A stretch of DNA of 63,868 bases, counting the filler, from Perkinsus olseni (taxonomy: Eukaryota), in assembly GCA_013115125.1 (NCBI GenBank). It is 6 parts of 6 records of this genome, joined end to end, with 100 filler letters (N's around TTAATTAATTAA, not from the genome) between each part and the next. Parts side by side here need not be neighbours in the genome. Positions count along the whole stretch, not along the records: positions 46,237 to 57,544 come from JABANN010000833.1; 5 more parts are not named here. The stretch is one strand, 5' to 3'. Positions within the stretch are counted from its first letter, which is position 1. Each line of letters starts with the position of its first letter. This document shows positions 53,652-53,673 of this stretch, piece after piece. The notes beneath the pieces were generated by a model. That model had not been told where the DNA came from and did not search any database. It was given only the letters and a program-made list of their open reading frames with translations. Made by a program: the position numbers and the translations under genes.

Positions 53652-53673
53652 CTGCTGTCACAGCAGTGCTGTG
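53652..53673. mobile_element. Exact hAT-type excision footprint in a coding exon, T=CTGCTGTG
   Basis: ctgctgt-cacagcag-tgctgtg. Collapsing it to one T fuses ORFs 53658-54854 and 52921-53661 in frame. Confidence 0.88.

Follow-up and report, generated by a model that had tools for sequence, protein, structure and literature searches.

The closest described counterparts of the scar reported here are the excision footprints of hAT-type transposons. In Ascobolus immersus, the footprints of the Ds-like element Ascot-1 are reportedly not random and contain long inverted additions that are attributed to hairpins (work ascribed to Colot et al. 1998); that record is said to be an experimental series at one locus and extensively diverse, whereas the Perkinsus scars are natural, spread genome-wide and of one form. 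In the part of PMC5499845 used here, hAT transposases are described as leaving the flanking DNA with hairpin ends. Ac/Ds, also a hAT element, leaves the same palindromes as our locus in plants, Saccharomyces cerevisiae and Candida albicans. According to the sections of PMC5873905 cited here, these palindromes are centred on the complement of the base beside the element and arise by hairpin opening followed by end joining, usually with microhomology (85–100% of footprints in Arabidopsis and 88–89% in yeast), and the resulting spectrum is heterogeneous, with 28 types in 128 events. Transcribed Perkinsus genes with frameshifts are likewise described in the portion of PMC9550989 cited here; those frameshifts are programmed, mitochondrial, conserved among four species and linked to unused codons. 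The scar described below is, by contrast, absent from five homologues, and programmed frameshifting of that kind was rejected as its explanation since it is nuclear and allele-specific.

We analysed a 63,868-nt stretch of the Perkinsus olseni genome, hereafter the window, which consists of chained contigs with N-linkers between them. Perkinsus is a parasite of molluscs (shellfish), and the locus of interest lies on the contig at window positions 46237–57544 (C3160 of the 39.9-Mb assembly G000, which has 3353 contigs). For comparison, the sequencing runs X3, X7, X8 and X10 were assembled as contigs over the locus, a level of comparison at which rare variants can be dropped, and public protein records were consulted, given here by P-numbers. 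X7 and X10 are spliced (RNA) when placed on the window, X7 being ~99% like it, and X3 is a possible source of the window itself, the one that was used out of six such runs in which every sampled word is found. Elsewhere in the window we observed two tandem zinc-type alcohol dehydrogenase ORFs (17392–18378 and 20866–21948), an aspartyl protease ORF (34923–36092) and, at 57645–63868, a contig of 16–17% GC that is probably mitochondrial.

The affected gene, RAD16-like paralogue B, occupies 50020–54854 on the minus strand in 15 exons; 12 of its 14 introns coincide with RNA joints in X7, and the other two were placed by homology. Its Pfam matches comprise an SNF2 N-domain with a long low-complexity insert, a RING finger and Helicase_C, and its uninterrupted frame carries Walker A at position 78 and DEAH at 642, followed by the RING finger and the second lobe. 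With motifs I–VI and a RING finger between the lobes, gene B resembles the Rad5/Rad16 SNF2 ATPases; unlike these relatives, it has a ~430-residue low-complexity insert that splits lobe 1, ~four paralogues in the genome and no HIRAN domain (none among the eight Pfam families of the public model P0124, as in RAD16 proper). Database relatives of the gene are named RAD16, while its best solved relative is a K. lactis-type "DNA repair protein RAD5" (6l8n, E 5e-49); its best protein matches are Perkinsus olseni records (76–88% identity) and one from P. chesapeaki (47%). A paralogue on contig C2898 matches the RAD16-named record P0008 more fully, N-terminus included. Judged from these resemblances, "RAD16" is used for gene B as a subfamily label only, not as a claim of orthology, and an excision-repair role is putative.

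The genome holds at least four RAD16-like loci: gene B, the tandem paralogue A, a third gene and the C2898 copy. The 5′ part of paralogue A lies at 46237–49791 (minus strand), where the five main exons checked are open and the contig ends in the RING region; its first intron holds a 23-nt odd palindrome with 11-bp arms (49617–49639). The 3′ end of the third gene lies upstream of B at 56131–57368 (minus strand), and we infer that its 5′ part is probably on contig C2924; a search for an exact contig overlap joining C3160 to C2924 found none. The tandem repeat at the contig end (57474–57544) recurs inverted at the start of C2924 (L069:1–100), and the two copies may be the inverted tandem ends of an intronic element, in what looks to be a single RAD16-like gene divided between two contigs. 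Within gene B itself, a ~40-nt tandem repeat (50990–51150) inside a 481-nt intron reaches a depth of ~500 in X3 and is therefore repeated elsewhere.

The scar falls in the long exon 2 (52941–54656, minus strand), whose flanking introns are seen in X7 and across which the homologues are colinear. An imperfect array of 21-nt (7-residue) repeats with KKES/VKGES units occupies 53632–53729 of this exon on the minus strand, and its unit count differs between alleles. The 21-nt VKGES repeat on which the earlier note built is present as a period, but the word it quoted is 15 nt long and has GAG where the scarred unit has GAA. On the minus strand, 53673–53652 reads CACAGCA CTGCTGTG ACAGCAG, an exact 7+8+7 match: with X = CACAGCAG on the coding strand, the 22-nt scar at 53652–53673 is X[1–7] followed by the reverse complement of X and X[2–8], a net gain of 14 nt. 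It holds two overlapping odd palindromes (53650–53668 and 53659–53673), each centred on the complement of the base beside the element, with one base lost from each duplicate, as in hAT footprints. The GTGAAGGGC units start at 53708, 53687 and 53652, so that a spacing of 21 nt is followed by one of 35, that is, 21+14. Within the scar, an in-frame TGA (53658–53660, read as 53660–53658 on the minus strand) forms codon 380 of the spliced frame; when the 14 nt are dropped, the two ORFs are rejoined in a spliced frame of 1128 codons with all SNF2 motifs. The 22-mer, the frameshift with its stop and the rejoining of the ORFs were all as the earlier note had read them.

This structure would follow if exon 2 of paralogue B had received a hAT-type transposon whose insertion duplicated the 8-mer X and which was later excised. 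The transposase would seal each flank as a hairpin, giving a palindrome centred on the complement of the base beside the element. Opening of the left hairpin would yield X[1–7] plus the reverse complement of X, opening of the right one the reverse complement plus X[2–8], and joining of the ends on this common 8-nt microhomology would produce the exact 7+8+7 22-mer, and thus the +14 nt, with no free parameter. The scar would then shift the frame and stop translation at codon 380. We consider it likely that the site is such an insertion and excision scar, and that it marks a young null allele of paralogue B, homozygous or haploid, still transcribed and spliced, and tolerated given ~three other RAD16-like genes.

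The scar is real and not an assembly slip, because one X3 contig of 5357 nt covers 51109–56000 with 0 differences at a depth of 121, the neighbouring contigs having depths of 117–118; the public models P0126 and P0127 also carry the scarred sequence, and an artefact was rejected as the cause. Outside the window, other alleles are represented by five P. olseni records spanning the site (P0003, P0004, P0005, P0007 and P0123), and every one of them reads through it. P0004, which has the same repeat count as the window, carries ESTAVKSEPSGG, as does P0005, and both read ESTAV at the site at the protein level, as an empty site with a single word would. Relative to the window, P0003, P0007 and P0123 have one more repeat unit and P0005 has two more. 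The record P0125 starts downstream of the scar site and is uninformative there, and the P. chesapeaki protein, although uninterrupted there, lacks a recognisable repeat. In run X8 there is a net gain of 7 nt at 53658, the letters being the bases that follow a single 8-mer; its allele may carry one extra repeat unit and no scar, a reading that fits the +7 nt (mismatch rows for the spot are absent from the listing).

Evidence from outside the window thus supports an unscarred, single-8-mer ancestor. Such an ancestor had been claimed directly from the repeat; it stands on the read-through homologues and X8, whereas the repeat alone tells only how long the insertion is (+14), since the bases concerned are different in the other units. 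Orthologues that all carry the 22-mer, the case raised in the earlier note against an excision scar, were looked for, and the five P. olseni homologues read through instead. No filled allele, with the element still at the site, was found in the four runs or the five read-through records, a very small sample. Because the homologues preserve the site without the scar, the locus is an externally checked example that anchors a genome-wide scar family to outside evidence, and the 7+8+7 motif can serve on its own to mark places where an element was once inserted and excised.

In 570,644 nt of the genome, the exact 7+8+7 motif occurs 80 times, against 0 and 0 in two controls. Of these, 57 lie in 420,753 nt (window included), against 0 in each of four Markov controls, which excludes chance, and 23 in a further 150 kb chosen blind; the 420,753 nt were partly picked for hAT matches, and the 177 kb not selected in this way held 24, an equal rate. 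Extrapolation from 23 per 150 kb, with contigs not drawn at random, suggests ~6,000 exact scars in the genome. The first 57.5 kb of the window contains eight exact scars. Besides those in gene B, exact scars are found at 19067, 20508, 26413, 32359, 38131 and 42781, and variants at 15700 (7+8+6) and, with one substitution, at 20110, 28627, 29456, 29906, 31901 and 56551; none of these is flanked to left and right by a long open frame. Near-copies are likewise in excess, with +49 at one substitution (controls 0–1) and +50 at two (controls 3–4), which implies that scars formed over a long time. A search for unscarred copies of a scar-rich stretch elsewhere in G000 found only a 50–70-nt shared piece. 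Beside the 42781 scar lies a perfect 61-nt palindrome with 30-bp arms and a 1-nt centre (42815–42875), possibly a long hairpin-opening product. In the literature searched, which left out most subscription papers (Perkinsus genome papers included) and supplements, we found no description of 7+8+7 scars in Perkinsus.

The geometry is specific. A scan of 257 kb returned 26 occurrences of 7+8+7 and at most one of any other 7- to 12-mer geometry, and the exact forms for 7-, 9- and 10-mers numbered 1, 0 and 0 in 421 kb and 0, 0 and 0 in the blind 150 kb; the footprint is built on an 8-bp target word, as in hAT elements. Ac/Ds footprints are mixed in length in the cited part of PMC5873905, whereas here one product prevails, in which all 8 nt are present as an inverted copy (80 exact occurrences in 571 kb), and the 7+2+7 form was found only 16 times, against 5 and 4 in controls. 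Because one form dominates, the scar family is a variant of the hAT footprint. The 7+2+7 excess, and that of the 7+3+7 form (18 against 0–4 in controls), may stem from tandem repeats, since plain direct repeats are strongly inflated as well.

Without any transposon, a replication template switch or repair could have made a micro inverted triplication of the local 8-mer. Forward–inverted–forward products are known from template switching, and no element is seen at the site, but such events are expected to vary in length, whereas one length and trimming pattern dominates (26 against ≤1 in the 257 kb), and the scar words show a target-like base preference; we regard this origin as very unlikely. 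With both orientations pooled, T at position 2 (equivalently A at position 7) occurs in 69/160, and T at position 1 is avoided (16/160). The T2/A7 preference is that of Ac/hobo-type hATs. The scars also cluster, 38 of 95 gaps being shorter than 500 nt, and they avoid long ORFs: at least 80 open codons on both sides are found at 4 of 106 scars but at 15.8% of random sites (P = 9e-5), which implies that coding hits were mostly purged. Two loci stand out. At L016:9159–9180 (G000:C2791:39159), an exact scar splits a gene of the subtilase family (Peptidase_S8) into two ORFs, the second host-gene hit among the 106 scars, and at L046:1281–2217 (G000:C3024:21281–22217), seven exact scars, two of them overlapping, occupy less than 1 kb of single-copy DNA, a landing hotspot.

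Elements of the expected class are present in the genome. The hAT dimerisation domain (PF05699) has matches at 11 places, and contig C521 (L035) carries an open 819-codon hAT ORF with PF05699 and DUF4371, a candidate transposase gene. Two left and two right flanks of this intact hAT were recovered at 100% identity, that is, two identical-ended copies; one flank pair (L064/L066) has 16-bp terminal inverted repeats (TIRs) and the 8-bp duplication ACTGTAGC, and the second copy shows no clean duplication. That copy (L065 end and L063 start; G000:C1438 and C3003) lacks the terminal bases and is bordered on the right by a palindrome (ACATTC-C-GAATGT); an aborted or re-joined excision may be the cause. 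A decayed hAT of 4094 bp (L036) also has an 8-bp duplication. A non-autonomous family with the TIR CAGGGTGTCTGA gave 18 end matches against 3 for a control pattern, and its three complete copies (68, 720 and 758 bp) all have 8-bp duplications; by hand count, its flanks have A7 in 9/16 and T2 in only 2/16. The 68-bp copy lies in the window at 29020–29087, with the target duplication TCTAAGTA, and exemplifies a class able to leave such scars. By these matches, the genome appears to hold a hAT transposase gene together with TIRs and 8-bp duplications. Some scars lie inside decayed hAT elements or their ORFs (L039:1638–1659; L036:514 and 3938), elements that were themselves hit by insertion and excision.

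The exact 7+8+7 shape, the 8-mer specificity and the presence of hAT elements with 8-bp duplications all agree with the excision-scar reading put forward in the earlier note. Another element that makes flank hairpins or 8-bp duplications (MULE, Merlin or P-like) could have left the same scar with the same consequences for the gene, which we judge quite improbable. In the relevant part of PMC5499845, MULE transposase also makes flank hairpins, but the MULE studied was excised precisely in >90% of events. Merlin makes 8–9-bp duplications, and Merlin-related ORFs are reported from P. marinus in the part of PMC8101967 cited here; against it, the exact 9-mer form was not found, and a search of G000 for DDE_Tnp_IS1595 gave no match, which is not proof of absence. 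The hAT elements with 8-bp duplications in this genome weigh against all of these sources. Under the preferred hAT origin, a lack of classical end joining was rejected as the reason for the uniformity of the scars, because a Ku domain gene is present (L033/L034; G000:C3024:69115–69644), and classical end-joining proteins may therefore exist.

With regard to zygosity, X3 gave 13 records on the stretch and no second allele at the scar, while the polymorphic X8 broke into 166 pieces; for this reason, the lineage appears to be homozygous or haploid for the scarred allele. Two public gene-model sets carry the identical scarred sequence, one split at the stop (P0126 and P0127) and the other a single model (P0124), and at most one set is independent, because one may derive from the window's own assembly. 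The as-is spliced ORF of the window equals P0126 (379 aa). The heterozygous allele that had been suggested is thus disfavoured, short of proof since contigs can drop rare variants. Function without cis-splicing rescue would require either such a heterozygous or mosaic allele, or halves of 379 and 724 aa made separately and reassembling, and we consider this extremely unlikely. Contigs can indeed hide rare variants, the break falls in the flexible insert, and the 724-aa model begins just downstream of a fair acceptor (53588, score 6.6); yet the X3 contig is invariant at a depth like that of its neighbours, the same scarred protein sequence appears in both annotation sets, and an out-of-frame ATG precedes the 724-aa model start.

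The preferred reading of a young null allele is consistent with the state of the gene. The TGA falls after Walker A and before DEAH, the RING finger and the second ATPase lobe, 720 nt ahead of the next junction and with 13 introns downstream, and a truncated product without motif II onward, RING and lobe 2 would lose protein function. A search of the gene B frame for a second lesion found none: minus the 14 nt, all 1128 codons are open, in agreement with the intact downstream exons and the recent lesion described earlier. Over 264 core columns, the window has three private changes downstream of the scar, against two, three and one in the other sequences compared. This absence of an excess of private substitutions gives no sign of relaxed selection; it fits a young lesion and, equally, rescue. 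In X7, which may or may not carry the scar itself, the gene is still transcribed, with splicing to either side of the scar site. The X7 contigs stop at 53538 and resume at 53814, with no joint in this hole (53539–53813) among the joints listed, and those of X10 do not reach the scar either; we counted the hole neither for nor against rescue. The best reading of the allele is a young homozygous or haploid null of one of ~four paralogues, and it is plausible that redundancy among these buffers the loss of B. Two further scars in gene B lie in introns: an exact one at 51709–51730, in a harmless position inside the 119-nt intron 51664–51782 (the X10 contig over 51582–51746 has 0 differences), and one with a single substitution at 54689–54710, within intron 1 (54657–54713).

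Whether splicing could bypass the stop was computed from the sequence. It had been argued that simple splicing does not rescue the frame, and this holds for the four nearest upstream codon-aligned donors, which give introns of 3n, but other donors or the scar's own sites could restore it. The scar supplies a GT donor (53661) and two CAG acceptors (53655 and 53652), and the phase-shifted GT donors at 53755, 53758, 53785 and 53908, joined to these CAG acceptors, would restore the frame. On paper, 450 GT/GC–AG pairs are frame-restoring, the best being donors 53908, 53953, 53860 and 53755 to the scar CAGs, or acceptor 53588. One candidate is a 53-nt rescue intron at 53609–53661 (minus strand) with the scar-made GT donor and a non-consensus GAG acceptor, a gene-model prediction only, with no RNA cover: the window minus this intron equals the public model P0124 exactly.

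The same hAT scar could accordingly sit in a gene that is rescued, its GT/CAG sites splicing out 50–260 nt of dispensable insert together with the stop codon. Besides P0124 and the further donor–acceptor pairs, this draws on the size of the gene's introns, 9 of 14 being 44–57 nt, on the tolerance of the region for length change among alleles, and on the persistence of transcripts with no decay downstream of the scar. The sites themselves point the other way. The scar donor scores −0.3, against 1.4–9.3 for the 14 real donors (leave-one-out), and has C at +5, where 13 of the 14 real donors of gene B have G; the real acceptors end in YAG in 14/14, whereas that of P0124 is GAG. In the other annotation set, the same sequence is divided into two models at the stop, and the depletion of scars in long ORFs implies that rescue is not general. 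Gene finders often invent introns across stops, and we read the P0124 intron as a gene-finder patch over the stop, not as a real intron. Rescue of gene B is on balance unlikely. Somewhat less probable still is a scar that makes its own splice site and is spliced out, an intron born from the transposon footprint and not from the element. GT or AC occurs in the central ten bases of 52/57 scar words (a raw count with no background rate), and if such births were true, the thousands of scars could keep supplying this intron-rich parasite with new short introns.

The scar in paralogue B is a real hAT-type excision footprint, an unusually uniform variant of a known one, that threw one RAD16-like paralogue out of frame in a lineage that appears to be homozygous for it. 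Footprint frameshifts are already known, and the loss of one among several paralogues is ordinary. As a family, the scars would hold a record of where elements prefer to insert, of purifying selection and of a single dominant repair route, none of which has been measured for this lineage in the literature searched. They also flag natural knockouts that gene models mask by an invented intron or a split gene. If RNA were to show rescue splicing at this site, it would be a direct case of intron birth, for which the site is a testable candidate.
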